A stretch of 64,000 nt of DNA from a virus (Duplodnaviria > Caudoviricetes). The stretch is taken from IMG/VR virus record IMGVR_UViG_3300021376_000006; one strand, 5' to 3'. A model generated the notes under the pieces. The model was not told the DNA's origin. It did no database searches and saw only the letters and a list, made by a program, of their open reading frames with translations. Made by a program: the position numbers and the translations under genes. Positions 1,880 through 56,396 of this stretch are shown here, in pieces. Position 1 is the first letter of the stretch, and each line of letters starts with the position of its first letter.

Positions 1880-3007
1880 TTATAAACTAAATCCTCGAAA
1901 TGTATTATTATCAACATCTTGTTTCGTGCCACCAATTACATAACTTGAAATTTCTGTTTCTTGTGGAGCAACTTGCACTTCGGCGCCGGCAATCCATTTG
2001 GCTGTCCATGGTAAGGGATTTGATCCTGGTTTCATTCCACAGTCTAGTCCTACTGCTGTCATGCGCTTGCAGGTCAACCAATCTACATAGTGACACAATA
2101 ATTGTTGATTAAGCCCAATCATGGATCCGTTTTGAAACAAATAATGTGCCCAGGCTTTTTCTTGTGCTGCGGCGGCTAAAAACATTTGATTGCATTCTGC
2201 ACGAGTTTCTTCTTTTATAGAAGCATAAGAAGGATCATCCTGTGGCAACAATTTGAGAAGGGTCTGCGTTGACCCTAAATGAACATTTTCGTCTCGCGCA
2301 ATTAATTTGATAATCTTGGCATTGCCTTCCATTTTCTTCAGTTCAGCAAAGGCCCATGAGCAAGCAAAGCTGACATAAAATCTAATACCTTCAAGTGCAT
2401 TGACACTATTCAAACACAACCACAATTTCTTTTTGAGTTCATACATATCAACCGTGACGGCTTCTCCGTTAACGGTATGTTCTCCTACCCCTAATAGATT
2501 GTAGTATTGCACCGATTTGATTAAATCATCATAATATTTGCTAATGTCTCGGGCACAGTCTACAATTTCTTTTATGTCCGTGAGCTCATCAAATATAATG
2601 CTAGGGTCACTATAAACGTTCCTGATAATATGAGTATAGCTACGGCTATGAATCGTTTCATTAAAGGCCCAAGTTTGTATCCAAGTTTCCAGCTCAGGAA
2701 TAGTAGCGACGGGAAGAAAAGCAAGGTTAGGACTACGACCTTGAACACTATCCAATAGGATCTGTCGCTTAAGATTGCTTGTAAAAATATGTTGTTCATG
2801 TTCTGTTAGTTCTTTGAAATCCTTGCTGTCTCGAAGTACATCAACTTCTTCTGGTCGCCAAAAGAAACCTAATTGTTTATCTGTTAATTTGTCAAATTGT
2901 CTATATTTTAGTGTGTCGTATCTTTGAATAGGTTGTGCGCCTGACTCATCTAAAAAGGCCAATGCTTCGGTGTGTTTGTTCTTATTATTAATATTAAATA
3001 CGCTCAT
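1880..3007 (-). CDS. nrdB: Ribonucleotide reductase class Ia beta subunit
   Basis: [44 protein letters not shown]; E. coli-like C-terminal [12 protein letters not shown]. Confidence 0.97.
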
Positions 3008-4212
3008 TAAAATTGATCCTTCTCTGTGCTGTGTGCCATGGCCGCTGTGCTCTTTGCACCTACAGCTTCGCTAATTAAATCAAAATAACCAACGCCAACT
3101 TCTCGTTGATGTTTTACCGTTGTAAATCCACGATCCTGTGCTGCAAACTCGCGCTCCTGCATTTCTGAATATCCAGCCATACCACGTTGCCGGTATGCCT
3201 CTGCCAGCTCAAAGGTTGCAAGATTAACACTGTGGAATCCAGCTAGTGTAATAAACTGAAACCGGTATCCTAATGCACCAAGTTCACGTTGAAAGGTCTC
3301 GCATTCTTCTTCGCTCAGGAACTTTCTCCAATTAAAACTAGGAGAGCAGTTATAAGCAAGCATTTGATCAGGATAAACACTGTGAATAGCATCGGCAAAT
3401 TTTTTCGCCTGCTTAATATCCGGCATGCTCGTTTCAAACCAGAGTAGGTCCGCATACGGCGCATAGGCCAATCCTCTGGCGATACAGGCCTCAATTCCAT
3501 TTTGAAATTTGAAGAAGCCTTCTTCTGTTCGTTCATGTACAATAAAATCCTTATCTAATGGATCATGATCTGATGTAATCAGCGTGGCCGCTTCTGCATC
3601 TGTACGAGCCATAATCACGGTATCCACACCGGCTACATCTGCGGCCAGTCTTGCAGCATTTAGATTGCGTATGGCCTGGCTGGTTGGAATCAATACCTTG
3701 CCTCCAAGATGCCCGCACTTCTTTTCGCTGCTCAGTTGATCTTCAAAGTGTACACCTGCGGCACCTGCTTCAATCATGGCCATCATGAGTTCATATGCAT
3801 TGAGTGCGCCACCAAATCCTGCTTCAGCGTCTGCCACAATAGGTAAGAAATAATCCACATCTGTTCGACCTTCACTAAAGTCAATTTGATCTGCACGACG
3901 GAAAGCATTGTTTATACCCTGTACAACTCGAGGCACACTATCTACCGGATACAAACTTTGATCCGGATAGGTAGTATTTGCGGTATTGTTAGCTGCTGCA
4001 ACTTGCCAGCCGCTTAGATAAATTGCTTTTAGGCCTGCCTTGGCATGTTGTACAGCCTGTTGACCATTATAGGCACCTAGTGTATTGATGTAAGGTTCGT
4101 TTTGTAACAGGGTGCGTAACTTATCTGCGCCTAGTCTGGCCAAGGTATGGTCTACTCTAATAGATCCCTGCAATTTTCTTACAGTATCAAAACTGTAATT
4201 TCTTTTTTTCAT
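3007..4212 (-). CDS. aceA: Isocitrate lyase
   Basis: [29 protein letters not shown] catalytic motif, [18 protein letters not shown]; start moved to MKKRNY (4212) behind AGGA SD. Confidence 0.97.
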
Positions 4213-8376: not shown

Positions 8377-9075
8377 TTAGCTTGTTAGGTAGTACAGTTC
8401 GACTCTACGCATCCATTGATCGCTCCAATACTGGAAATCCTTGGGTTCTAGCACAAATTCTTGATACTGGGGGGTTGAATTTTCATCAGCCGGTAGAGCA
8501 CACATAAGAATGACACCTGTAGTAATGCTTGTTCCGTGTGTGCCGTTGTGAGCCGCCGCATATGCCGCGAGCTGTAAAAAATAATCGTCGATCCATTCGC
8601 GTTTCTTAGGCTTGTTCGTTTGTTTAAAATCCATGATCGCAGGCTGTCCTCGCCAAACGCCCACACAGTCAGTAGTACCAGCATAAAGCCCAGAATAGTA
8701 TAAAGGCACCTCGCAACCCCAATATTCATCAACATTTCCTAATCCTTCCAATATAACTTGTGCTGCCATAAACCACGAGGGTTGAGCATAGGGATTAGCA
8801 GGAAAATCGCCTAAGTCATCGTGCTTGATATACCGTTCTAGATAGGTATGCATTCTGGTACCACGATTGGCAGCTTCGGTTGTGATCTGTTGCGCTCGTT
8901 CATGACCTACACGATCTTTCCACTCGCGCAATGCTTGTCGGGCTTCTTCGGGCTTAGTACGATCCAGTATGGTTGTTACACTGGGTACCTTGCTACCATC
9001 AGGAAGACAATAGTGTCGCTTGCCCTCAACAGTGGTCCTGTTAAGGGGCTTGTAGTCAAATTTTTGAATAATCAT
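8377..9075 (-). CDS. PD-(D/E)XK exonuclease (RecB/Cas4-like phage exonuclease)
   Basis: PSVTTIL, RGTRMH, EVPL, AGTTDC, MDFKQ, QLAAY motifs. Confidence 0.85.
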   Translation of the reverse strand: MIIQKFDYKPLNRTTVEGKRHYCLPDGSKVPSVTTILDRTKPEEARQALREWKDRVGHERAQQITTEAANRGTRMHTYLERYIKHDDLGDFPANPYAQPSWFMAAQVILEGLGNVDEYWGCEVPLYYSGLYAGTTDCVGVWRGQPAIMDFKQTNKPKKREWIDDYFLQLAAYAAAHNGTHGTSITTGVILMCALPADENSTPQYQEFVLEPKDFQYWSDQWMRRVELYYLTS

Positions 9076-10782: not shown

Positions 10783-10811
10783 ATTATAAACTTTTTAAGA
10801 TCTTTTTGCAA
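10783..10811 (-). promoter_or_regulatory. sigma70-type promoter TTGCAA-17-TATAAT for iscU-iscA
   Basis: Read on minus strand; followed by AAGGAG SD and iscU ATG. Confidence 0.6.
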
Positions 10812-11220
10812 GTGCCGACTTTGCCATCGAGTCAACTGTACGCTCAGGAGCTGTTTTTACACCTTTTGAATCAGTAACCCCGGGTTCTTCATCTGCATCA
10901 TCTGCAAAAGGTTCAAGATATACATACTTGACTCCAGAAAGATCGTCTTTGATATCTTTGATTAGATTTTTAACGTTTTGATTGTTCTTGTAAGCGTCCA
11001 ACAAATTTTCCAAATTAAACTGTTGTTCACCTGTGCCTTGAACCAAGTTGATCAGACTGTCTACTCGTATGCGAGGTTGAATGTGGGTATCGTGAGCTCT
11101 ATGACGTAAGAATTCAAGTGTGGTGAGCAAATTTGCATCACCACGACCGTCTGCCTCATCTTCGAGCACTTCATCCAAGTATTGATCTAAGTTCTCTGAA
11201 ATAACTTCACGAATACGCAT
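10795..11220 (-). CDS. Acidic hypothetical protein, putative head-associated
   Basis: N-terminus MRIREVISE; coupled to neighbours. Confidence 0.6.
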   Translation of the reverse strand: MRIREVISENLDQYLDEVLEDEADGRGDANLLTTLEFLRHRAHDTHIQPRIRVDSLINLVQGTGEQQFNLENLLDAYKNNQNVKNLIKDIKDDLSGVKYVYLEPFADDADEEPGVTDSKGVKTAPERTVDSMAKSALAKRS

Positions 11221-11903
11221 CAGCGTTTTTCTCTGCCCACTACATTAGGGCCTGCTGCTGCATCTGTTGCAGCAAAATTATCAGTCTCCATGTTGCCAGT
11301 CATGTCTGTTGCAGGCATTTGGTCTGGCATAGGGCCACCAGGTGCAGGCATGTCCATTCCCATCGGAGCGGCCACTTGTTCACCGGCTAAAGCTCTTGCC
11401 GCATCATCGGCTGTGCTTCTTGCTGATCCTAATTGTTGTACCATATTAGCTAATAGCGGCTCAACTGCACCTTTAAATGCCTCAGCCTGTTCCATGCCAA
11501 TTTGATCACGGATAGTGTCTAGCAGTGCAGGCATTTGCTCGTTTTGCATTTTGCTTACATCTTCCAGCATGTCTTGGATACTATCAACCATGTCCTTGGC
11601 AGCCAAAATAGCTTGACTCTTGCCCATTTCGCTTTCCATGATCAGCTGTTGCTTGTTTTCGATCATCCAACGGTGTAGACCTTCACGGATCATCAGTAAT
11701 TCCATGTACTTTGGATTTTGTTCTGCTACGTGGACTCCGTGACTGTGCTTGATTTTTTCAAGATTTTCGGTTAAGCCTTGAGCTAGCACATAAGCTTTTG
11801 GAAAGTTTAAATTGTCATAATCAATTTTGACGCCAAAGCGGCTTTCCATAACTTTGTTGATTTTTTTAGCGGAAGGCTTGACGCCCATTTCTGTTAATCT
11901 CAT
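11220..11903 (-). CDS. Helical hypothetical protein, putative prohead core/scaffold-like
   Basis: MRLTE N-terminus, coiled-coil middle, Met/Pro-rich low-complexity tail. Confidence 0.55.
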   Translation of the reverse strand: MRLTEMGVKPSAKKINKVMESRFGVKIDYDNLNFPKAYVLAQGLTENLEKIKHSHGVHVAEQNPKYMELLMIREGLHRWMIENKQQLIMESEMGKSQAILAAKDMVDSIQDMLEDVSKMQNEQMPALLDTIRDQIGMEQAEAFKGAVEPLLANMVQQLGSARSTADDAARALAGEQVAAPMGMDMPAPGGPMPDQMPATDMTGNMETDNFAATDAAAGPNVVGREKR

Positions 11904-12415
11904 AGTGGTGTGTTCCCAAATTTTAAGTATTTAGCCGAAATCAAAGTTTTTTTCAAAATGTTCAAAACGGTACGACGTTGTAATGTAGCGTCAATATATC
12001 TATTTAATGCAATATTGCTTTGAAATTGGTTTTTTGTAGTATTAATTGTGTGTTTATAAAATGCTATATCGTTATCAAGTTTACCCAGCTGCCGGTCCAA
12101 TTCCAGCACTTCATTGTAATCTGATTTGTTTTTTATAGATTTCAAACAATATAAAATTGCATGAGATTTGGCAACAAAATCGTGTAAATGTCTACCATCT
12201 CGTTGTATGACTCGCCAGCAGTTTTTTGTATGCCCGGTGATAATATAGGGGCCAACAAAAAACCCGCGATTTCCATTGGGGATAACCACGGGTTCGTTAA
12301 TAAATTTTTTAAGTTCTTGTTGGGTCCAACTTTTTATATATTTGATACCAAAATCTGCAAATGCGTTTTGAGCCTGTTCAAAATCAGTTTTTTTTCCTGT
12401 AATAGATTTTTCCAT
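11900..12415 (-). CDS. Hypothetical phage protein
   Basis: ORF overlapping both neighbours in same-strand operon. Confidence 0.6.
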   Translation of the reverse strand: MEKSITGKKTDFEQAQNAFADFGIKYIKSWTQQELKKFINEPVVIPNGNRGFFVGPYIITGHTKNCWRVIQRDGRHLHDFVAKSHAILYCLKSIKNKSDYNEVLELDRQLGKLDNDIAFYKHTINTTKNQFQSNIALNRYIDATLQRRTVLNILKKTLISAKYLKFGNTPL

Positions 12416-12590
12416 CTTGATTTTTTCTAAATAAAATATCTTTGTTAACCAACTGATTAGCTATTAGATGTTGTCTTGCAGACATGTCTTCTTTAGCTAT
12501 CTGTTTGACATCTTCAATTTGACCTAAAACATCTGCTTCTTCATTGGTAATTGGTATCCTTATTTTATTTACAAGTTCTACTATCTTCAT
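12384..12590 (-). CDS. Small hypothetical protein (winged-helix-like)
   Basis: MKIVE N-terminus; LIANQLVNKDILFR motif; operon context. Confidence 0.55.
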   Translation of the reverse strand: MKIVELVNKIRIPITNEEADVLGQIEDVKQIAKEDMSARQHLIANQLVNKDILFRKNQDGKIYYRKKN

Positions 12591-12593
12591 TTT

Positions 12594-12860
12594 TTATTTT
12601 AGAATAAGTTGTACAATGACCATAATTAAGCCTGTGAGCATTGCTACGCCAAAGGCTGTGCCAACAGTGATCAACTGCCCGCTACTTTTACTGGTAGCTT
12701 CTGCAGCCGACTCTGATATTTTCGTGCGTATAATTACAATATGTTCTTCCATTGTATGCATACGCTGTTCTAACTTATCTAGTTTTTCTTCCAATGCCCG
12801 GTATCTTTCAGCACATAAATCCACGTGCGCCTCCAGGTTTGCTCTTTCGCTTGCTGCCAT
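12594..12860 (-). CDS. Coiled-coil protein with C-terminal transmembrane helix (holin/XhlA-like architecture)
   Basis: LEEKLDKLEQRM coiled coil then LITVGTAFGVAMLTGLIMVIVQLIL hydrophobic helix. Confidence 0.5.
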   Translation of the reverse strand: MAASERANLEAHVDLCAERYRALEEKLDKLEQRMHTMEEHIVIIRTKISESAAEATSKSSGQLITVGTAFGVAMLTGLIMVIVQLILK

Positions 12861-12943
12861 ATCGCTCTTTCATAAAAGTTAGAGGGTTCTGAGTTAGTGC
12901 CTAGATAATGTGCCATAAAAAGATGCCTAATAGGTGCCTGTCT

Positions 12944-13378
12944 TTAAATAGTATTTAAGTTAATTCTGCCTTTTATAAAATATATGTTTTTTATTGCGCC
13001 GTATGGATAAAAAATAGGCAATATAAATCTTGCAGTTTCTTCAAGACCGCAGATAATAGGCACCCTAGCAAATGCTTGATCGAGCGTACCAACTGGGTCG
13101 GATCCTTTCAAAAATACGTCTTCATGTTCTACACCAAAACTGAAAATCCAACAGCGTTGATTTCCAAAATATATTTCGGGAAAATATGAGGTTTCGTCAA
13201 TCACTAAGTCACGCACATATGGACCATCAATTAATTGAGGTTGCGCTCGTAACCCAATACACTGCAAGACTGTTTCCCAATTACGTTGTTGATTGCGCTC
13301 AAGTTCTACATCATCGCGATGTCTTATTATTCCAGTAGCAGTTATATCAACTAAGGTTACACCAGTATAAAATTCCAT
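12944..13378 (-). CDS. Hypothetical phage protein
   Basis: ORF; start moved to MEFYTG, 5 nt after a TAAATA box. Confidence 0.6.
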   Translation of the reverse strand: MEFYTGVTLVDITATGIIRHRDDVELERNQQRNWETVLQCIGLRAQPQLIDGPYVRDLVIDETSYFPEIYFGNQRCWIFSFGVEHEDVFLKGSDPVGTLDQAFARVPIICGLEETARFILPIFYPYGAIKNIYFIKGRINLNTI

Positions 13379-13397
13379 ATAAATATTTATAATCAAT

Positions 13398-13424
13398 AAA
13401 AAAGCAGACTGAAGTCTGCTTTTT
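13398..13424 (-). terminator. Rho-independent terminator (AAAAAGCAGAC-loop-GTCTGCTTTTT), likely bidirectional
   Basis: Perfect inverted repeat with T tracts on both sides, just after the stop at 13445. Confidence 0.85.
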
Positions 13425-13444
13425 ATTTTTAAATAAATTTAAAA

Positions 13445-13840
13445 TTAAGCTACTGTAAATGATGCACCATCAGCTACAGTTGTACCACTTAGATCAACAC
13501 TGTTAGTGCCAACTGCTGTTCCTAAGGCACGAAGTGTAGTTTGCAGCACGCTTGCTGCTGGTGCATTAACACCGTCGCAAATTACGCTAATAACACCAGT
13601 AGCTGCGTTTGCAGCAAAGTATACTAACACACCTTGTGGTAGTGAGCGTATAATTGCTTCAAAAGCTTCATTAACTGCATCATCTTCTGTACGAAGATCA
13701 ACTGCACTTGCACTTGCATCTTTAGCAGTGATTAGATATAATTTAACGCTATGACCAACTTGTGCACCTGATGTGCCATTTAATGTGCCTACTACACCAG
13801 CGAATGCATAACCTGAACTACGAGTAACTCCTATTGGCAT
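13445..13840 (-). CDS. Small Ala/Gly/Val/Thr-rich putative virion structural protein, paralog 2
   Basis: MPIG start shared with 13945..14379; own late box, SD TAAGGAG and terminator. Confidence 0.65.
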   Translation of the reverse strand: MPIGVTRSSGYAFAGVVGTLNGTSGAQVGHSVKLYLITAKDASASAVDLRTEDDAVNEAFEAIIRSLPQGVLVYFAANAATGVISVICDGVNAPAASVLQTTLRALGTAVGTNSVDLSGTTVADGASFTVA

Positions 13841-13899
13841 TTTATTTCTCCTTAAATGTTTGCGTATTACCGCATAATAATATTTATGGCAGTAATAAA

Positions 13900-13925
13900 A
13901 AAAAGCAGACCAAAGTCTGCTTTTT
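13900..13925 (-). terminator. Rho-independent terminator with the same stem as 13398..13424
   Basis: AAAAAGCAGAC CAAA GTCTGCTTTTT. Confidence 0.85.
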
Positions 13926-13944
13926 CAAGGTACAAAAATACCGA

Positions 13945-14379
13945 TTAACTTGCTGCTAGTTTAATACCAACATTACGAACATCCATGGTAGTTGTTGTAA
14001 CTGGGCCATTAGCACCAATGTTACTTGATAGGGTAGCACGTAATGCAACTTGCATTGCTGCTGCACTTGCCCATGAACTACGCTCAGTGATAACACTTAA
14101 CTGCGTGTTAGCAGCAGTTGCACCAATATCAACTTGATATGCTAGAACTGTTGCGTTTGACGAAATAGCATTTAACAGTGTTTCAACTGCACCTGCTGTG
14201 CCATTTGTGCCACGACTTAGTTCAGCTGCAAGATTACCTGCAACAACTTGAATGTTGTATGCATTGACTGGACCAACAACACCAGTACTAATAATTGCTG
14301 CATTTGTTAGAATACGTCCACCATCAACGTTGTTTACGCCACCTGTGTCGCCATTTACTTTTGTTGCTCCTATTGGCAT
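13945..14379 (-). CDS. Small Ala/Gly/Val/Thr-rich putative virion structural protein, paralog 1
   Basis: MPIG start; similar composition and similar E(A/T)(I/L)...LAY region to neighbour. Confidence 0.65.
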   Translation of the reverse strand: MPIGATKVNGDTGGVNNVDGGRILTNAAIISTGVVGPVNAYNIQVVAGNLAAELSRGTNGTAGAVETLLNAISSNATVLAYQVDIGATAANTQLSVITERSSWASAAAMQVALRATLSSNIGANGPVTTTTMDVRNVGIKLAAS

Positions 14380-14439
14380 TTATTTCTCCTTAATTATTTG
14401 CGTTACCGCATGCTAATATTTATATCAAAGTATTCAAAA

Positions 14440-15537
14440 TTACAATCTTCCTTGCACATTTGAAGTGGAAAATACTCCACGATTTACCAGTTTTATAAAA
14501 CCACTAGGTGTGTTTATAACAAAACCTTCGCCTTTGGGTACATCGTTTACATATTGCTCTACGCCTTGTACTTGCGGTTCTAATTGATCTAATATGGCTA
14601 ATTTTAGGTTGTAAATTGCGCCATACGCAGTATCCATTGCTTCCATAATAGGACGATTTTCTTCTGCTGCTACAATCGCCAATTGCGGTTTGGTAATGTT
14701 ATTTTGTAACCAAGCAGCATCTACTGCTTGTCCTGTATACTTTCTGTTATAATATTGCTGTAGTCTAGCGATAGTGGATTGCGTTAAACTGCCTAAAAAC
14801 GCATCCCCATTCAAAGCTTGGAAATTTCGCACCGCTGCTTGTGCTGCTTTGACTTGTTTCACTGGTTCTCTGAGTGCAAATTTCGTGCCCATGTCACCAG
14901 TTAAAACAGTAATATATTGATTGGTACCGCTCAAGCCGCCTAGACCTTTTAAAGAAGTTTTGTTGGTTAATTCAGTGCCTTTGGTTGTTTTTTCTACATC
15001 ATTACCGTAAGTGTGTACCGCCAACCCAAAAGGTCTGCCTTTGATTTGCGTTTTCCCTAACTCGCTGTCAGTTTTTACCTTGTATTTGACTCCATATGGA
15101 TTGGCATGAAAAACATAGTAACCTTGCTCTTGGTTAACCGGCTCAGTCCACATCACATCCCCTTGGACTAATCCGCTAAATCCTGCAGGTACTATGCTAG
15201 CCACAGCATCAAACATATCTGCTAGTTTTTGTCCCACATCCATGTTTTTTCCATGCTGAGCAAAGAAGTTTAATAACTCTTGTCCAGATGTAACTTGGCC
15301 GCCCGGCATGCCGATGTACTCTTTGTAGTTCATAGTAAACAGACCATCGGCTGGTCTACGACCAAATATAATAGCCGGGCTACCGTCCCATTTGATACTA
15401 ACAATGGTTGGGTTAGAAACCGCGGCGAGCATGCCTGTGACAGCATCTTGTGCTGCGGCGCTTCCGTTAAGAATAAAATCTTCAGGATGCGGAGTTCTTA
15501 TGCCTTCGGTAAGTGTTGTAATAAATTCTAGTAGCAT
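14440..15537 (-). CDS. DUF6267-like protein with covalent nucleotidyltransferase (ligase) motifs
   Basis: SIKWDGSPAIIFG (motif I KxDG), VQGDVMW (III), EGFVI (IV), IKLV (V). Confidence 0.55.
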   Translation of the reverse strand: MLLEFITTLTEGIRTPHPEDFILNGSAAAQDAVTGMLAAVSNPTIVSIKWDGSPAIIFGRRPADGLFTMNYKEYIGMPGGQVTSGQELLNFFAQHGKNMDVGQKLADMFDAVASIVPAGFSGLVQGDVMWTEPVNQEQGYYVFHANPYGVKYKVKTDSELGKTQIKGRPFGLAVHTYGNDVEKTTKGTELTNKTSLKGLGGLSGTNQYITVLTGDMGTKFALREPVKQVKAAQAAVRNFQALNGDAFLGSLTQSTIARLQQYYNRKYTGQAVDAAWLQNNITKPQLAIVAAEENRPIMEAMDTAYGAIYNLKLAILDQLEPQVQGVEQYVNDVPKGEGFVINTPSGFIKLVNRGVFSTSNVQGRL

Positions 15538-16373
15538 TATACAAACTTGTTAGAAGTTTCTCTAAACCATGCTGCGGTTCCGGGCATAGGTGCTGCTTCT
15601 GGCAATTGAATGTCGCTTCTGGCTAGAGTTTCTCTAGCCGCTGCTACTAGCTGATCGTAATTGGGTCTTTTACTAACTGCATCTAGTATATCATCGGCTG
15701 TGTTTAACTTCGCTACAGGTATTCCGGTTAACTTGCTGATAGTGGCAGGATTTTTTCCATTTTCAACCGTGGTATTAGTTGCACGATCCACCAATCCATG
15801 TTTGTAACTGTATTTTAATCCCGGGTGTAATGTACTAACGATACTTGCTAACAGTATAGCACGACTTTCACCGGTAAATTGACTTCCTTCGCGGCCTCCA
15901 CGCATGGCAAATTGCTGCCATATTGGATCTCCGCTAAACATAAAATCTGTTTGTGCATACCCATTATCTGGATTACCATTAACGGGAGTCTTAAAATGCA
16001 CATTGTCTCCGGATTTTTCTATCCAATTTGTTTTATCTTTTGCAGTATTAGAAATTTGTTCATCGGGTATGCCTTGCTGTCTACACCATGCTGCTAATTT
16101 TGATATTAATTCTTCTTTGCTAACTTGTGTTTCATCTACAGATAAATCTAAGTCACCCGACGATCCTGGTTGCTCTTCTGTACCTTTTTTACGACCAGTT
16201 GTCCCCAGCCATTTTATAGGCACATTTTCTTCATCTCGATCTAAGGTAAAATCTAATCCAGTGATTTGTTCTAGCCAAGAGATTGTACTGGCAATTTCGC
16301 TAGTTAATATGCGTCTTGTCAACGGAGTTTTGTCGGCCTGTTTAAAAACATTACCGCCTTCGTTTATTTTCAT
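15537..16373 (-). CDS. Pol-beta superfamily nucleotidyltransferase
   Basis: WLGTTG...SSGDLDLSVD and later QTDFMF third Asp. Confidence 0.6.
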   Translation of the reverse strand: MKINEGGNVFKQADKTPLTRRILTSEIASTISWLEQITGLDFTLDRDEENVPIKWLGTTGRKKGTEEQPGSSGDLDLSVDETQVSKEELISKLAAWCRQQGIPDEQISNTAKDKTNWIEKSGDNVHFKTPVNGNPDNGYAQTDFMFSGDPIWQQFAMRGGREGSQFTGESRAILLASIVSTLHPGLKYSYKHGLVDRATNTTVENGKNPATISKLTGIPVAKLNTADDILDAVSKRPNYDQLVAAARETLARSDIQLPEAAPMPGTAAWFRETSNKFV

Positions 16374-17125
16374 CTACGACCTCTCCTTGGTTTAGGAGGC
16401 GGTGGTATATTTTCCACACTGCCTTCTTTGTTAGCGTAATCATCTAGTACAGCGTAGTCGTCGAATCTAGCTCTAACAGGTACTCCTGTGGTAGGAATTT
16501 GATACCAATTTCCGTCTGGGTATTTGTAAAACGTACCAGCTGGTGTTTCGACTGCAATGCGCTCGTTGTCGGCCATTGGCTGGTCAACCAAGTTAATAGG
16601 TTCTTCTGGTTCATCAGGTATCGTCCTGCCAGGCGGAGTTCTTGATGGAAGCTGTGCTGGTTCGACAGTCTGGTCTGGCTGAGTTTCTGGCCCTCTAGCT
16701 TGTTGGGCTAAATCTTCAAATCTACCATTTTGTTTTGCTAGTTTTTCAAGTGCTTGTAACGATGTGCCTGATGCTATTTGTCTGTTACCGGCATCAGTCC
16801 AACGTCCCGATTTATCAGCATCTTGCGGTAAAGCAGGATACTTGTAGTAGAGTCTTTGATCTCTAGTGGTCACAACCAGACGTTTGCCCTGCGGCACCGT
16901 TGTACGAGACAATGGTTTGTCTTGAGGTCGATACTCATCAGTGGGCATGAAACTGGGCACGCCACTTGAGTGTTTTTGTAACATTCTTGAAAACATTCCT
17001 GGGCCACTGTCTGAGGTAGTTCTACCAGTGTATTCACCAGTTTCTGGATCCTTTTCAAAATCCCATCTGTCGTAAGGGTCTCTCACTCGAACTTCATCTT
17101 CAACTATTATGTCCTTAATCTTCAC
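16370..17125 (-). CDS. Hypothetical protein with duplicated YKYP module and Pro-rich linker
   Basis: GTG start behind AGGAG SD (VKIKDIIVED); two similar V.T...(Y/F)YKYP..G.W segments. Confidence 0.6.
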   Translation of the reverse strand: MKIKDIIVEDEVRVRDPYDRWDFEKDPETGEYTGRTTSDSGPGMFSRMLQKHSSGVPSFMPTDEYRPQDKPLSRTTVPQGKRLVVTTRDQRLYYKYPALPQDADKSGRWTDAGNRQIASGTSLQALEKLAKQNGRFEDLAQQARGPETQPDQTVEPAQLPSRTPPGRTIPDEPEEPINLVDQPMADNERIAVETPAGTFYKYPDGNWYQIPTTGVPVRARFDDYAVLDDYANKEGSVENIPPPPKPRRGRR

Positions 17126-17363
17126 GTCGAAATCTCCTGACTCCGCGAGCAAACTTGGCAGGATCTTGTGCTCTAATGCTGTTAAGTAACCTACGTTCTA
17201 ATTCAGCTGCTTGTTCTGCATCGTAGTTTTCTTTGATATAATTTATCAAATTGATAGCACCCTGTATCACATGTCCAGCACGACTTTCCACTAAATTTTC
17301 CCTGTCTTTACCAACGGGCATATGGGCTAGTTCGTCAAGTATACTGCGGGTGCGTTTTTGCAA
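17115..17363 (-). CDS. Conserved small helical phage protein
   Basis: TTG start with GGAG SD and TAAATA box upstream. Confidence 0.65.
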   Translation of the reverse strand: MQKRTRSILDELAHMPVGKDRENLVESRAGHVIQGAINLINYIKENYDAEQAAELERRLLNSIRAQDPAKFARGVRRFRRED

Positions 17364-17393: not shown

Positions 17394-18032
17394 TTATAAC
17401 AAGTTACGGTAATTGAGTTTGTTGACTAGCATATCAAAATACATGCTATGCCCGGCCGGGCCATCATGTCCGTTCCATCCACATAAATCAAAATCTACTG
17501 GCTTTATACCGGTAATATTTTCCTGAAACCATATTCTACTATCATCAAACCAATTTAAAATTCTGGGTTCGTTTTTAACGTAATTAACAAAAGCATCTCG
17601 CATAGGTAGTTGATTATCGCTAAAATTTTTTCCGTTATTGATTATAAGAAATTGCTTGTTTCTTGCTTTAAAAAATTCTATCAGGCCTATTATATGTGCA
17701 TATAAAGTACACTCGATTGTTTCAAAATCTAATTTTTCAATCGCTTCTTTCGTTAATATATTGTGTAACGTATGACTATGTGGTGTAGTCAAGTCAAATC
17801 TAAATATTGTAGTAATATTTAAAATATACAACACTGGTAATTTAGGGTTTTCTAAGCAGTGCTGCATTGCTAATTTAAGCATCATGTCATTGCTACGCCC
17901 GGGTAAACTTTCGTTTACTATTTCTGTACACCCATAAAGTTTAGAAATTTTGTACCAATAATGATCTTGTATACTTGGGCACCATATTCCGTTGTTATAT
18001 GTGTGGCTGTCACCAAGATTGTATAAAATCAT
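17394..18032 (-). CDS. SGNH hydrolase-like protein
   Basis: LGDSHT block I, NESLPGRSN block II, GHDG C-terminal His. Confidence 0.55.
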   Translation of the reverse strand: MILYNLGDSHTYNNGIWCPSIQDHYWYKISKLYGCTEIVNESLPGRSNDMMLKLAMQHCLENPKLPVLYILNITTIFRFDLTTPHSHTLHNILTKEAIEKLDFETIECTLYAHIIGLIEFFKARNKQFLIINNGKNFSDNQLPMRDAFVNYVKNEPRILNWFDDSRIWFQENITGIKPVDFDLCGWNGHDGPAGHSMYFDMLVNKLNYRNLL

Positions 18033-19456
18033 TCGGTTTTTGTTTTAAGGCTTGCCAGCATACTTTTTAGTCGCGAGCTGTCAACTGTAGCCTGAGCTGA
18101 TTTATCTAAGTCAAGTCCAGGTTTGGGTCGGGCTGCGACCATGGGGCTGGTTGTTGTGGTAGATGTTTTGATTTGATCAAGTATCTGATTACTTGTACGG
18201 AAACCTTGTCCGCCATTCTCACTTTGTGCATCCGGTCCAGGATCGGTAATACGCATGGTTTCGATATTGTATTCTAAATCCACTTTCATACCTACGCCAG
18301 TACTGCTACGACTTTTCATACATTGTATCTGATATCGACCACGCTCACGCATGGCTCGACTTGTAAAAATACCAAACACATTATCTGCTGTATTAATTTT
18401 ACTGATACCACCTGATATATGACTGTGATCAAATTCTACTTCTTCGACTGCCGATCGATTTAATTGACTTGCTGTTACCATTAACATGCCTAGTTCTTTG
18501 GCTAAATTGCGTAGTTCTTCACTGACATACTTGTCCTTTACAAACAAGTCATTGGGACTAACCTTGGCGCTTACTGGCATTAACAAGTCCAAGTAGTCAA
18601 TCATAATAAAGTCTACCTGTCGACCTGTTTGAATTTGATATTCTTTAAGATAAGAACGTATATCATTGATATTGCTTTGGGCAGGTAGGCCTTTAACTTG
18701 ATAAGTTCCTGCTTTTTTTCCTACCATTTTTACTTTTAGTGTGGTGGTATCAATATCCTTACGAATATCTTTAGTACTCATGTTAGACAACATGGCATCA
18801 GTACGCAAGCTGGTCAGTTCTTCACTCAGTTCCAGTGTAATATAAACGCCGTTCAATCCTGCTTGTAGCCAGTTTAGCGCAATGTTCATCATAACAAGCG
18901 ACTTACCTGATCCTGATCCACCGGCAAAGATGTTCAGTTCTCCTCTACTGAATCCACCATATAGCAACTTGTCAAGACTAGGCCATCCTGTGCTCACTTG
19001 CCCGCCTGAATTGAAATATCGGTTGATACGAGTAGCCGGATCAGCAAAATAGTCTGTACCCATGTCTTTGGTCAAACTGATCTGTACAGCATCTTTTATC
19101 AGTTTTTCTACAGGATCGAAGTCACCTCGTTCAATCATGTCCGCTGCTTTGAGAATAGCTCGCTCTAGTTCTTGCTTGCGACTAAATCCTTCAAACTCCT
19201 CTAGAAACCAATCATAGTGTCCGTCTCTGAGATCAGGAACAGATCGTAATTCTATACCAGTTGCAGCCTGTATCTGTTCTCTAGTAGGCAGGGTTTTATG
19301 ATCATCACTGTGTTTTTTTATAAACTTTGCAGCTTCCCGTAAACTTCTATCAAAATTTTCTGCATTGTAAATGTTCTGAACACGCACATAAGTTTCTGCG
19401 TCTTCCAACATCATTTCTAAAAATAATTTCTGTACTTCTGGATTATAATCTTTCAT
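18029..19456 (-). CDS. Replicative DNA helicase, gp41/DnaB-like
   Basis: AGGSGSGKS Walker A, IMIDYLD Walker B, VSEELRNLA, TASQLNR, KINTAD. Confidence 0.93.
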   Translation of the reverse strand: MKDYNPEVQKLFLEMMLEDAETYVRVQNIYNAENFDRSLREAAKFIKKHSDDHKTLPTREQIQAATGIELRSVPDLRDGHYDWFLEEFEGFSRKQELERAILKAADMIERGDFDPVEKLIKDAVQISLTKDMGTDYFADPATRINRYFNSGGQVSTGWPSLDKLLYGGFSRGELNIFAGGSGSGKSLVMMNIALNWLQAGLNGVYITLELSEELTSLRTDAMLSNMSTKDIRKDIDTTTLKVKMVGKKAGTYQVKGLPAQSNINDIRSYLKEYQIQTGRQVDFIMIDYLDLLMPVSAKVSPNDLFVKDKYVSEELRNLAKELGMLMVTASQLNRSAVEEVEFDHSHISGGISKINTADNVFGIFTSRAMRERGRYQIQCMKSRSSTGVGMKVDLEYNIETMRITDPGPDAQSENGGQGFRTSNQILDQIKTSTTTTSPMVAARPKPGLDLDKSAQATVDSSRLKSMLASLKTKTE

Positions 19457-20481
19457 GTTGTATATAGTTTTTTCTTTTTAAGTTGAATTTTTAACTTGCT
19501 TGTTTCTCTTGACGCTAATATGCTTTTTAACACAAACAATTTGCCGTATTGAACTACAGCGTCATTGATATCTTTACAGGTTTCCTGCCATACAGGAAAA
19601 CTTACTGTCCATCCTGCCTCAATCGCACGATCTACTAACTTTCTTCCTGCACGATCTGTATCTGGCACAACTATAACTTCACGCTGTAGCCTATCTATCT
19701 GTTCAACTTGCGTATCTGAAAATTCGGAACCATTAAGTGCCACACCATCCACGCTCATAGCGTCAAATGGACCTTCACATACTATGACAAATCGACTATC
19801 TGGCAGTTGATTATCTAAATTGAACACAAAATCTGCTGGATGACTTGACCAATATTTTGGTTTAATACCGTCAACGATAGCTCTTGCTGTATATCCTACT
19901 ATACTTTGCTTGTAATAAAACGGGATAATTATTCGTCGATGCAAATTGTATGCTTCTTCGGGTGTCCAGTAGAATTTATATTTGTCTATATCAATATTTC
20001 TACGATGTACATATTCAATTGCAGCAAGTAATTCTGCGGGCACATTATTGTAATCACCTATGCTGTAAAAATTAGCTAATTCAACTACATTCCTTGCTTG
20101 CTCAGGTAATGTTCTTGCCTCATAATGAATTTCTTCTTCTGGTACCTGCTCAAGCTCTTCAGGGGCTACAAGTTCTTTAAGTCTTACCGCCTCAATTACC
20201 AAGCGTCTTATTGTTAAATCATCAGCACCCAACCAGGCGAGTAATTTTCTAAACTTAAATGTAAGATGCCTTCCTGGCACATAACTGGCCTTGTAGCCAC
20301 AGTTGAAGCAATGATACGACACCGCACCTGCATTAGTTTTTATGCCACCTCTACCTCGAGCATCAGACGATTCACCATTGTGCGGGCAGCATACAGCATT
20401 GAATGATATCCAGCCATTCTGACCCGTTTTACGACGGGCAGGCAGTAGTTGCAAAACTGATTGCTGGATAGAGTCTAACAT
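19453..20481 (-). CDS. DNA primase, gp61-like
   Basis: CCPH...HCFNCG zinc ribbon; TOPRIM EGPFD and PDTDRAG. Confidence 0.9.
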   Translation of the reverse strand: MLDSIQQSVLQLLPARRKTGQNGWISFNAVCCPHNGESSDARGRGGIKTNAGAVSYHCFNCGYKASYVPGRHLTFKFRKLLAWLGADDLTIRRLVIEAVRLKELVAPEELEQVPEEEIHYEARTLPEQARNVVELANFYSIGDYNNVPAELLAAIEYVHRRNIDIDKYKFYWTPEEAYNLHRRIIIPFYYKQSIVGYTARAIVDGIKPKYWSSHPADFVFNLDNQLPDSRFVIVCEGPFDAMSVDGVALNGSEFSDTQVEQIDRLQREVIVVPDTDRAGRKLVDRAIEAGWTVSFPVWQETCKDINDAVVQYGKLFVLKSILASRETSKLKIQLKKKKLYTT

Positions 20482-55192: not shown

Positions 55193-55221
55193 ATTATAGT
55201 TGAAATTACAGAGAAACTCAA
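55193..55221 (-). promoter_or_regulatory. sigma70-type promoter TTGAGT-17-TATAAT, 5 nt before ATG
   Basis: Read on minus strand; no SD. Confidence 0.6.
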
Positions 55222-56396
55222 TCTCTTTTTTGTCTAGGAGTAGTATCTTTGTCTCGAGGTTCAGCCAGTCGTCCAGGATGTGTTATTTTAACTCTAGTTT
55301 TTTCTGGGTCAAACTGTTTTAATTCTTTACTACTTACTTCTTGATCTTGTTCACCATTTGGATCGTAATTTTTATCTACAAGATTACCATCTTTATCAAC
55401 TAATATAGGATTTTTTTTACCTGTTTTACCAATACCTCTGGACAATGTTACTGCCATAGTTCTAATGCCACGGATTCCGAGAGATTTATTATTCCTGCCT
55501 GGATCGTTGCGTATCAACCAAACCATGGCATGGCTTTCAGGAATATCTTGTCTTGTAGCTATAACAGCATGACATTCAACCCGAACTTGATTGCCGTTTT
55601 GCACAAAATGTTCTGGTTTGAATGTCTGAATAACTATACCACCCCGAGGATTCAAATCGCTACCAAAAATTGCCTCCAAGGCTTCTTGTTCAGTAGGCTC
55701 TACAACAATCTCTCTGCTTAGTCTAAACACCGGGTTATAGGATGGGCTATTTTCTAGTTGAATTAATTCGACTACACCTTTATCTCTTAGTCGATCTATA
55801 ATGTCTCGAGCCTTTTGACCAAAGGCAGTATCTGCACTTTCCCATGCTTCAGCATTCAACTTTTTAATACTAATAGGAAGATTACTGTCAGGACTTACCA
55901 GAACTACATCAGCCTTTTTCCTTGCTTTTGTATCTCTGCCAGATATATTAACTTTGTTACAGTTGTTTAATGTCAGGGTTTTTCCCCGCGGATCAACAAA
56001 AGTAGTGTGTACGGATCCGTATTTTTCAATTACGCTTTGTAATATACCAGCAAGTTCAATTTCATTGGCAACACCTGCACTTTTGTCCCCTTGCTTACCA
56101 ATATCTTTTACAAATAATTTTACCTTACTCTGCCAAAATTCTACATGACCAAGGCTGCTTCCCCCATAAGGACTGTATCTGGCGTCCAAATCAGGATTTG
56201 CTGCATTAATAGTTTGTGGCAGGTCTTGCAAAACTTTCATTCTAAAATCGTCTTTAATTTGTCCGTCAGGAATTTGTACAAGCACAGCTATCTTATTTCC
56301 ATCAATTTTTAAGTCTGTATAGCCGTTTTGAGCAAGTATATCCTGAATTTCTTGCTTGGTAGCTGCTTCTGTGAGAATGTTGATTAGTTCGCGCAT
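55218..56396 (-). CDS. PD-(D/E)XK restriction-endonuclease-like protein with putative capsid-targeting N-terminus
   Basis: ANEIEL, KKADVVL, ISIKK; N-terminus MRELINILTE; TAAATA box 7 nt upstream. Confidence 0.55.
   Translation of the reverse strand: MRELINILTEAATKQEIQDILAQNGYTDLKIDGNKIAVLVQIPDGQIKDDFRMKVLQDLPQTINAANPDLDARYSPYGGSSLGHVEFWQSKVKLFVKDIGKQGDKSAGVANEIELAGILQSVIEKYGSVHTTFVDPRGKTLTLNNCNKVNISGRDTKARKKADVVLVSPDSNLPISIKKLNAEAWESADTAFGQKARDIIDRLRDKGVVELIQLENSPSYNPVFRLSREIVVEPTEQEALEAIFGSDLNPRGGIVIQTFKPEHFVQNGNQVRVECHAVIATRQDIPESHAMVWLIRNDPGRNNKSLGIRGIRTMAVTLSRGIGKTGKKNPILVDKDGNLVDKNYDPNGEQDQEVSSKELKQFDPEKTRVKITHPGRLAEPRDKDTTPRQKRD

Follow-up and report, generated by a model that had tools for sequence, protein, structure and literature searches.

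Two adjacent genes of a bacterial virus, here called B and A, are the subject of this report. They lie in a stretch of 64,000 nucleotides (the window) from the IMG/VR virus record IMGVR_UViG_3300021376_000006, which is assigned to the Caudoviricetes (Duplodnaviria), and both genes and all of their features described below are on the minus strand. Gene B (15537..16373) encodes a protein of 278 amino acids that resembles a minimal family X DNA polymerase (PolX), a nucleotidyltransferase of the Pol-beta superfamily. Gene A (14440..15537) encodes a protein of 365 amino acids that belongs to the Pfam family DUF6267 and appears to be a divergent covalent nucleotidyltransferase of the ligase superfamily. 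The reading frame passes from B to A through a TAATG stop/start overlap, read from the sequence at 15535..15539, where the junction GTA TAA TG CTA has one base common to the B stop and the A start. A 337,915-bp metagenomic contig, found through a metagenome protein collection, carries identical copies of both proteins. The window therefore comes from an uncultured giant phage, which is T4-like and has a genome of about 338 kb. A megablast comparison of the A/B locus with cultured phages gave no match.

Folds and conserved residues of the two proteins

The catalytic signature of protein B is WLGTTGRK...SSGDLDLSV (16137..16211), which contains an hG[ST] helix start followed by D74 and D76. A later strand, QTDFMF (15936..15953), holds Q141 and D143, the latter as the predicted third carboxylate; the coordinates of both segments were verified by translation. 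In an alignment of 40 homologues, the signature WLGTTGRK-x-SSGDLDL[SA]VD and the QTDFMF strand are invariant. When the comparison is widened to 42 diverse members, including domains derived from fusion proteins and reaching down to about 24% identity, the invariant residues are exactly G57, S72, D74, D76, Q141, and D143. This set makes up the hG[GS] signature and the carboxylate triad by which the Pol-beta superfamily is recognized.

As modeled by AlphaFold2, B has a predicted local distance difference test score (pLDDT) of 85.9 and a predicted template modeling score (pTM) of 0.76. It was compared with 48,161 PDB representatives by VIA-align, a structural aligner that is independent of Foldseek. 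The first nine places are all taken by family X DNA polymerases (Z 9.4 to 7.6). The best match is Pol beta (4rpx, Z 9.4, 164 residues), and the nine include Leishmania Pol beta, Pol lambda, TdT, Thermus PolX, and Pol mu. The polymerase of African swine fever virus (ASFV Pol X, 5hr9) is matched with Z 8.1 over 152 of 176 residues. The PolX alignments span model residues 10-230, that is, both palm and thumb, with 152-174 residues aligned, and their Z values of 8-9 are moderate. The next class of match comprises the terminal uridylyl and poly(A) transferases (TUTases), which reach a Z of about 6 over some 90 residues of the palm only. Foldseek ranks Pol mu and Pol lambda first, at borderline values (E about 1e-3, TM about 0.4). 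In the Pfam searches, the commonest weak match among the 42 members is DNA_pol_B_palm (PF14792), which is found in three of them (best E 0.0019, below the gathering score) and is not matched by the window's own B; one member has a weak match to DNA_pol_B_thumb (E 0.15). The family search with B itself gave no significant match, the nearest being a weak one to the AbiEii nucleotidyltransferases (E 0.025). The RlaP family (PF10127) is not matched by B at E <= 1, nor is it among the families listed for the 42 members.

In its model, B is without the 8-kDa deoxyribose phosphate (dRP) lyase domain and the fingers domain, with only about 20 residues ahead of the palm helix. This would rule out a full-length PolX architecture for B and leave a minimal one, because ASFV Pol X is also without the 8-kDa and fingers domains. 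As modeled, B is a Pol-beta-superfamily enzyme whose architecture appears nearest to the minimal PolX of the ASFV type; it is not a member of PolX at the level of sequence. Near the C-terminus, the model has a helix-hairpin-helix-like element (ISKLTGIPVAKLNTADDIL; 15675..15749) with helices at 209-216 and 226-233, and in a profile search this segment matched a designed helix-turn repeat. We infer that it might bind the nucleic-acid backbone. Three other assignments of B were tried and rejected. CCA-adding and cGAS-like enzymes match the palm only, with Z of 5 or below, and the same limits (palm only, Z <= 5) hold for cGAS/CD-NTases and protein-modifying nucleotidyltransferases; for an AbiEii-type enzyme, there is only the match at E 0.025 given above.

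Protein A belongs to DUF6267 with a Pfam E of 1e-29, and also to phrog_455, a family with no function assigned. Searches of NCBIfam and the PHROGs gave no function for either A or B, and no paper mentioning DUF6267 was found in the literature searched. Among 1.84 billion representatives of 50%-identity clusters, 612 relatives of A were found at E <= 1e-3. Putative counterparts of the motifs that mark the ligase superfamily follow one another in A in canonical order, namely I (K49), III (D127), IIIa (F143/Y152), IV (E337-G338), and V (K349/R353). Motif I, IKWDG (15382..15396), lies between model strands 46-48 and 55-60, and its K49 is the predicted nucleotide-accepting lysine. The motif III-like strand VQGDVMW (15148..15168), which contains D127, falls on model strand 122-130. 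Motifs IV and V, KGEGFVI...FIKLVNR (KGEGFVINTPSGFIKLVNR; 14479..14535, verified by translation), contain E337, G338, K349, and R353. Residues that do not vary among close homologues (57-87% identity) include K49, D51, G52, R60-R61, D127 in the strand VQGDxMW, H175, E337-G338-F339, and K349-L-V-x-R353. In an alignment of 65 diverse sequences, to about 25% identity, H17, K49, D51, G52, G59, Y152, K312, E337, G338, and K349 are invariant, and at least 90% of the sequences keep E11, E19, D20, K72, D127, F143, H175, V351, and R353.

The model of A (pLDDT 93.9, pTM 0.91) has polynucleotide ligases in places 1-16 of the VIA-align ranking, with Z 7.7-5.6 and 164-195 residues aligned. The Naegleria RNA ligase NgrRnl (Rnl5; 5cot, Z 7.7, 185 residues) is first, and it is followed by trypanosome REL1 (6.8), T4 Rnl1 (6.5), fungal Trl1 (6.4 and 6.3), T4 Rnl2 (6.3), archaeal Rnl3 (6.3), and then DNA ligases at 6.2 and below. 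These alignments are scattered across model residues 10-365, and residues 226-322 (14572..14862) match unrelated helical proteins only. In the model, the latter residues form a helical insert that sits ahead of motifs IV and V and contains the invariant K312, so that the nucleotidyltransferase core of a ligase would be split by the insert. The modeled chain ends about 15 residues past motif V in a single helix; hence A would be without an OB domain. Foldseek searches of a viral library and of the AlphaFold database (AFDB) return strong matches to members of the family itself, many of which also carry a "cytidyltransferase-like" domain. Apart from the family and such fusions, the commonest named matches are RNA ligases, all of them weak in the viral library (E 4e-3 and above), as they are in AFDB save for one row at E 2.5e-5. 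The Pfam DNA ligase models (PF01068, PF01653) match none of the 65 members, and the RNA ligase models (PF09511, PF09414) give a single match, of one member to RNA_lig_T4_1 at E 0.15. Because 16 consecutive structural matches are ligases, the KxDG lysine is invariant, and the motifs follow the canonical order, the clear best reading of the model is that A belongs to the ligase superfamily by fold and motifs, and to none of its known families. A capping enzyme was considered for A and rejected, as none is found among the 50 structural matches listed.

Linkage of the two genes and their genomic setting

The association of B with A was assessed in two ways. A hidden Markov model of B was run on the 149 listed representatives (50%-identity clusters) of A's family, and it detected a full B domain in 37, of which 31 have B ahead of A and six have A ahead of B. 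A second survey covered 80 viral-contig loci that encode relatives of A with 28-81% identity. In 43 of these loci, the gene that immediately precedes A on its strand is B, which is separate in 28 (usually 6-20 bases apart) and fused to A in 15. B and A are thus strongly linked genetically. Where B is missing, the slot upstream of A is occupied by one of several unrelated unknown families or by a DnaB-type helicase, as at the viral locus L055, where there is a DnaB_C match upstream of A. Among cultured phages, B was found only in the 469-kb Sinorhizobium phage Phosso. The Phosso homologue of B is matched at 99.8% probability, and its neighbor is a different gene of 411 amino acids with a KLDGS motif and a sub-threshold match to RNA_ligase (PF09414, E 0.085). 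B-type enzymes therefore recur beside ligase-type partners, and A also occurs without B. A structure prediction for an A-B complex returned a score of 0.00 ("no answer") and was used neither for nor against an interaction.

An earlier note on this DNA, made from the letters alone, had proposed much of the above, and most of it holds. The two TAATG-coupled reading frames are there on the minus strand with their one-base overlap, and all of the motifs it quoted for A and B are present at coordinates verified by translation. These motifs are not a chance occurrence, since K49, D51, G52, E337, G338, and K349 of A do not vary among its 65 members, nor do the six invariant residues of B among its 42. 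Its naming of B as a Pol-beta-type enzyme agrees with the six invariant residues and the nine leading PolX matches, its naming of A as a ligase-type covalent nucleotidyltransferase with a conserved KxDG lysine agrees with the model and its 16 ligase matches, and its DUF6267 label for A is that of Pfam. The gene pair is co-conserved, and the note's reading of it as end addition plus end joining is sound. Two comparisons were right in part. From a list of Pol-beta, CCA-adding, and cGAS folds, the Pol-beta superfamily stands, with a PolX-like palm and probable thumb, and the other two fall away. Where the note spoke of an ATP-grasp/ligase fold, A has the nucleotidyltransferase domain of the ligase superfamily, split by an insert and without OB domain, and is not an ATP-grasp protein in the strict sense.

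Relatives of A are also fused to other domains. A cytidylyltransferase-like HxGH domain is found in at least seven of the longer representatives, and NT5C or HAD phosphatase-like domains in others. Single cases combine A with Acb1 and ParB_N, or with ART-PolyVal and sigma-70 region 4. The HxGH domains have sub-threshold matches only, the best being to nicotinamide and nicotinic acid mononucleotide (NMN/NaMN) adenylyltransferases and to phosphopantetheine adenylyltransferase. In cyanophages, genes annotated as "cytidyltransferase" come after the DUF6267 gene, and a 591-amino-acid "cytidyltransferase-like" protein of phage S-PM2 contains the A fold. Four metagenomic relatives of A (P0277, P0285, P0298, and P0318) are very large multi-domain proteins with Acb1 (anti-CBASS), ParB_N, and ART-PolyVal, and with sigma-70 region 4, NT5C, DUF5661, and HAD-like domains besides. 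Their architecture is that of predicted virion-packed polyvalent proteins; Acb1, ART, and ParB_N are characteristic domains of the polyvalent proteins for which Iyer and colleagues predicted packing into virions and injection (PMC5512222, PMC9503650).

Another partner is seen in Kyanoviridae, where an overlapping gene of 360-485 amino acids always precedes DUF6267 (P-HM1, 2547-4004; Melnitz, 2923-4008; C48C1, 2703-4004). In these three proteins, no resemblance to B or to a Pfam family could be detected, and they do not cluster with one another by BLASTP, which makes the gene an unexplained alternative partner. The idea that the gene upstream of DUF6267 in Kyanoviridae and PA5oct is a hidden B homologue was dropped, as BLASTP and hhalign speak against it and Pfam finds nothing.

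In the window, the pair has among its neighbors a gene for a primase, one for a DnaB/gp41-type helicase, and one for a baseplate or tail-fiber connector. The helicase (18029-19456) and primase (19453-20481) reading frames lie upstream of the pair on the minus strand and together span 18029..20481. Between them and the pair, also on the minus strand, is a gene for an 82-amino-acid homologue of the PA5oct "virion structural protein" gp259 (17115..17363; phrog_11854, E 4e-18). It has tblastn matches in 40 records, and among the 15 matches listed all genomes are 285-469 kb. As a synteny marker, this small gene ties the window to the PA5oct/RaK2-like group of T4-related giant phages. The gene order in PA5oct matches that of the window, with primase, DnaB, and a gene of about 80 amino acids. 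A replication-module neighborhood is also annotated in Melnitz, P-HM1, PA5oct, and Phosso. The primase and helicase adjoin a DUF6267 or A-like gene in Melnitz and PA5oct. In Phosso, they adjoin B and the ligase-like gene beside it, whereas the DUF6267 gene of P-HM1 lies five genes past gp41. The gene just upstream of B in the window (16370-17152) overlaps both of its neighbors. It encodes 260 amino acids that are rich in proline and charged residues, look disordered, start with MLAE, and match no family. On the other side, about 5 kb downstream of A and on the same strand, is a gene for a 232-amino-acid protein (8377-9075) with a strong PHROG match to an exonuclease (phrog_298, E 8e-55) and weaker matches to Cas4/RecB-like and RecE-like families. 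It could be a further end-processing enzyme.

Probable filling and sealing of broken ends, and other readings

B and A probably form a two-enzyme nucleic-acid repair unit that fills and then seals broken ends. The folds of the two proteins, the conservation of their catalytic residues, and their genetic linkage, fusions included, were observed, and from them we infer the following chemistry. B, with a palm that carries the D74/D76/D143 metal-binding triad and a thumb-like subdomain, and much like ASFV Pol X in having neither 8-kDa nor fingers domain, would extend a 3'-OH end by one nucleotide or a few, or fill in a short gap. In A, K49 of the KWDG motif would accept a nucleotide monophosphate, in all likelihood AMP; the enzyme would then transfer this to a 5'-phosphate and close the break. 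The helical insert of A may stand in for the accessory domains of other ligases, and A may represent a new branch of the ligase superfamily of covalent nucleotidyltransferases, one that has no OB domain. If DUF6267 is an active ligase, it would be a new architectural class of polynucleotide ligase, and it could explain how strands are joined in T4-like cyanophages and pelagiphages that have no recognizable ligase. B would rank among the smallest polymerase-X-type enzymes known and would be the first widespread one in phages. As a compact fill-and-seal unit, the pair would be of interest for phage replication and repair, for counter-defense, and possibly as a source of enzymes for molecular biology.

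Several results weigh against this proposal. Single-sequence and profile searches of PDB sequences returned no PolX for B and no ligase for A, with spurious helical matches only in both cases, and the Pfam matches of B to PolX families are all sub-threshold. Foldseek found nothing for A in the PDB at E <= 1e-3, which places the support at the level of fold class, and the best Z of A, 7.7, could by itself be fortuitous. In motif III of A, Asp takes the place of the Glu of canonical ligases, and in motif V there is a single Lys instead of their two. B is missing from 33 of the 76 assessable viral loci, so A does not always depend on B. One complete 352-kb phage encodes both a canonical ATP-dependent ligase and DUF6267; hence A is not simply a replacement ligase. 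The frequent fusions of A to HxGH adenylyltransferase-like, HAD phosphatase, Acb1-like, and ART domains leave room for a nucleotide-centered chemistry other than repair.

As to the substrate of the fill-and-seal pair, we lean tentatively, and at somewhat less than even chances, towards nicks or gaps in DNA that are linked to the replisome. The modeled likeness of B to PolX, thumb included, and the place of the pair behind primase and helicase would favor DNA. A nick in DNA requires no end healing, and next to the window pair there is no kinase or phosphatase for healing RNA ends; DNA is favored on this ground also. DUF6267 was found in 469 phage records, 454 of them from cyanophages, and it is present in most cyanophage records of the collection searched. 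Three complete Kyanoviridae genomes with DUF6267 (Melnitz-3, P-HM1, and C48C1) encode no ligase of PF01068, PF01653, or PF09414. This agrees with the status of gp30 as a "quasicore" gene, missing from one or more of the marine relatives of T4 (PMC2993671).

A less likely substrate, though one to be taken seriously, is RNA. B and A would then act like RlaP with an RNA ligase, B restoring the lost 3' nucleotides of cleaved tRNA or other RNA and A resealing it, with no action on DNA. The best structural matches of A are RNA ligases (Rnl5, REL1, Rnl1, Trl1, Rnl2, and Rnl3), as are its commonest, weak matches outside the family in the viral library, and A resembles RNA ligases in having a helical accessory module and no OB domain. 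Phages are known to pair a Pol-beta-type enzyme with an RNA ligase (PMC7824862), and damaged RNA receives one or two nucleotide monophosphates from RlaP (bioRxiv 10.64898/2025.12.29.696909). Some relatives of A contain, in the same chain, HAD phosphatase-like and 2H (Acb1-like) phosphoesterase domains that could heal RNA ends, and the Phosso partner of B has its weak RNA_ligase match. However, B fits PolX, including the thumb, better than it fits RNA-specific nucleotidyltransferases (Z 9.4 vs. about 6) and has no PF10127 match, and the gap in Z between RNA and DNA ligases as matches of A is below 1.5. The genes are moreover embedded in a replication module, and the family is widespread in cyanophages, including the three complete genomes in which no DNA ligase was found.

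The earlier note had gone further and placed the pair in the virion. According to this proposal, their leaders direct A and B into the head, where a T4-type prohead protease cuts both after [I/L]-x-E; injected with the DNA, they then repair host-cleaved tRNA or other RNA or phage DNA as an anti-defense kit. We regard it as unlikely. The N-terminal element of A, MLLEFITTLTE-GI-RTPHPED (15478..15537), consists of a leader like a capsid-targeting sequence and an H-P-E-D box that includes the invariant H17 and the conserved E19 and D20; residues 1-11 have pLDDT below 50. B begins with MKINE ahead of GGNVFK (16359..16373, verified by translation). Both leaders end in [I/L]-x-E, before G in A and before GG in B. 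Starts of the form M-x(0-2)-[IL]-x-E are found in six of the 79 window genes, all six between 10795 and 17152 (Fisher p = 3e-6). Many standalone DUF6267 proteins have N-termini (MRAYEFITES, MKVQEFLIES) close to the T4 capsid-targeting sequence MKTYQEFIAE, as this is quoted in PMC8442874, citing Mullaney and Black 1996.

The same residues are also conserved inside fusion proteins. Of 94 N-terminal positions, 64 have the A signature h-x-E-[GA]-x-x-R-I-x-H-P-E-D, and of 48 internal ones, 37 have it. In B, h-x-E stands directly ahead of GGN[VI]FK in all 26 anchored domains, nine of which are internal, and some homologues begin at MGG, like a cut product. The h-x-E residues may be parts of the domains, or they may be conserved protease sites that free the domains from polyproteins. 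The second is somewhat favored, because two unrelated folds both begin with h-x-E-G. The leaders of the earlier note are thus present, clustered, and T4-like, and that of A is at the same time part of a family signature that is kept internally. E11 of A lies inside this signature across very diverse phages and may be structural, and the "leader" of B has five residues as against about ten in T4.

Other evidence on packaging comes from the surroundings of the pair. The stretch 10795-17363 is a block of about 12 co-directional genes, six of which start M-[KR]-[IL]-x-E or M-L-x-E. Three genes of the block (11220-11903, 12384-12590, and 17115-17363) match PHROG "virion structural protein" families, which would suit virion delivery. 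The block is syntenic with the PA5oct region past DnaB and may encode head-internal or scaffold-like proteins. The one proteomic hint comes from PA5oct, which encodes a T4-type prohead scaffold/protease; many genes of its syntenic block are marked "structural protein, ESI-MS/MS," that is, detected in virions by mass spectrometry (MS) (PMC7318152). The company of DUF6267 with Acb1, ART-PolyVal, and ParB_N in multi-domain proteins points the same way (PMC5512222). Against delivery, the PA5oct protein gp256 is not flagged as MS-detected. This distant A-like protein (446 amino acids, starting MNIAE) is linked to A by the motif IV-V segment (hhalign 64.6%) and by a match to a 446-amino-acid PA5oct protein in the viral structure library. 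Its neighbor gp257, in the position of B, is flagged, but hhalign shows that it is not B-like, and most of the virion-detected PA5oct neighbors have no leader. No end-healing kinase or phosphatase stands beside the window pair, and the window has no tRNA genes.

The promoters also speak against virion delivery. No T4-type late promoter lies directly upstream of B or A, and the stretch from 24111 to 14424 is free of minus-strand cores. Upstream of the pair, the first promoter-like site to be met is of the sigma-70 type (18084-18057). A T4-type late promoter core (TATAAATA; 14417..14424, minus strand) just downstream of A serves the next gene (13945-14379) and not the pair. The core ATAAATA is depleted in the window on both strands, with 12 copies found vs. 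26.6 expected and all 100 shuffles having at least 12. The minus-strand copies at 14417, 13881, and 13384 precede small structural-protein genes downstream of A, and strong terminators lie at 13926-13899 and 13424-13399. Most minus-strand copies are just upstream of gene starts, which suggests that the motif is reserved for real late promoters. Two of the genes so served (13445-13840 and 13945-14379) encode paralogous small proteins, rich in Ala, Gly, and Thr, of 131 and 144 amino acids. Both start with MPIG, and each has its own T4-type late-promoter core (13881-13887 and 14417-14424, respectively) and a strong terminator. By eye, their N-termini resemble those of PA5oct gp250 and gp251, which are MS-flagged virion proteins, and of Phosso gene 450; the paralogues probably occur in the virion in large amounts. 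A 392-amino-acid protein encoded far from the main block (55218-56396; phrog_12709, function not assigned) starts with MRELINILTEAA, which resembles the longer A-type leader (...ILTE|A). For virion delivery as the earlier note put it, the evidence is mixed, and the anti-defense role in tRNA repair, for which neither a healing enzyme beside the pair nor a tRNA gene in the window was found, stays a hypothesis.

A broader conjecture joins several of these threads and is a long shot. For the T4-like phages of the sea, namely Kyanoviridae and the giant phages related to them, DUF6267 would be the enzyme, so far missing, that joins strands; it would form a new class of split-domain ligase that works with a miniature PolX. 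It might take its adenylate from NAD+ regenerated by the frequently fused NMN adenylyltransferase-like HxGH domain, and in some lineages it might be loaded into the head via a T4-like leader and released from polyproteins by the prohead protease. Least probable, and very unlikely in our view, is that A, B, and an HxGH partner act on nucleotides, cofactors, or proteins as a counter-defense (signaling nucleotide, NAD chemistry, or protein nucleotidylation): the recurrent fusions to HxGH, NT5C/HAD nucleotidase, Acb1 anti-CBASS phosphodiesterase, and ART-PolyVal domains, the "cytidyltransferase" genes next to DUF6267 in cyanophages, the NMN/NaMN adenylyltransferase matches of HxGH, and the weak AbiEii match of B would fit this reading, but the folds of A and B agree best, over most of their length, with polynucleotide-handling enzymes, the cGAS/CD-NTases and protein-modifying nucleotidyltransferases match B in the palm only, the domains of polyvalent fusions need not share a pathway (PMC5512222), and no such partner adjoins the window pair.

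Comparison with known systems

The T4 internal proteins and Alt share with A and B a short N-terminal element that ends in [I/L]-x-E, and several DUF6267 N-termini come near to matching the T4 sequence. Unlike the T4 leader, the element of A and B is also conserved inside fusion proteins, and the packaging and cleavage of A and B are predicted only.

Rnl1 and Rnl2 have an all-helical accessory module. Together with NgrRnl (Rnl5), these two T4 enzymes are the best matches to the core of A (Z 6.3-7.7, 171-185 residues), and all of them share with A the KxDG lysine motif and the lack of an OB domain. The helical module of A is inserted ahead of motifs IV and V, whereas that of the RNA ligases is appended. 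The Rnl families differ from A also in that the Pfam RNA ligase models miss A, which has the motif III Asp and the single motif V Lys. The comparison with T4 Pnk/Rnl1 that was drawn in the earlier note accordingly holds as an analogy and not as membership.

RlaP (PF10127) is a Pol-beta-type nucleotidyltransferase that travels with RNA ligases in the RNA repair of phages and bacteria (PMC7824862; bioRxiv 10.64898/2025.12.29.696909). Like B, it is a Pol-beta enzyme coupled to a ligase, it is proposed to restore lost 3' nucleotides prior to sealing, and its nucleotidyltransferase domain is N-terminal, with a mostly helical domain behind it. B differs in having no PF10127 match and in being nearer to PolX than to the RNA-specific nucleotidyltransferases. 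The partner of B is DUF6267, whereas the partners of RlaP are Rnl1, Rnl2, or RtcB.

ASFV Pol X has 174 amino acids and consists of palm and thumb-like subdomains only; it works with the ASFV DNA ligase in viral base excision repair. B is likewise, in its model, a minimal PolX-like protein with palm and thumb-like subdomains only, and it too is paired with a virus-encoded ligase-type protein. The ASFV ligase is itself among the structural matches of A (6imk, Z 4.5). In sequence, B shows no significant resemblance to PolX, and its C-terminus is longer by about 50 residues; A, in contrast to the ASFV ligase, is without OB and DNA-binding domains and has the helical insert. The host of ASFV is an animal cell and that of the B/A phage a bacterium, and B and A are known here from genes and models.

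In cellular PolX enzymes, the 8-kDa domain carries the dRP lyase activity. B has no such domain; PgVPolX of Phaeocystis globosa virus 16T has dRP and apurinic/apyrimidinic (AP) lyase activity (PMC5537341). In PgVPolX, according to that source, a PolX core is fused to an NAD+-dependent DNA ligase, and the protein fills and seals intermediates of base excision repair. Its ligase part is LigA-like, and A is in no known ligase family. Like the B-A fusions among the representatives of A's family, PgVPolX joins the two parts in one chain; it is a proven viral PolX-ligase fusion, whose activities, as reported there, cooperate on gapped DNA. Beside it, the B/A pair would be a viral fill-and-seal unit made from an unrecognized ligase family, and the window one more instance of such a unit.

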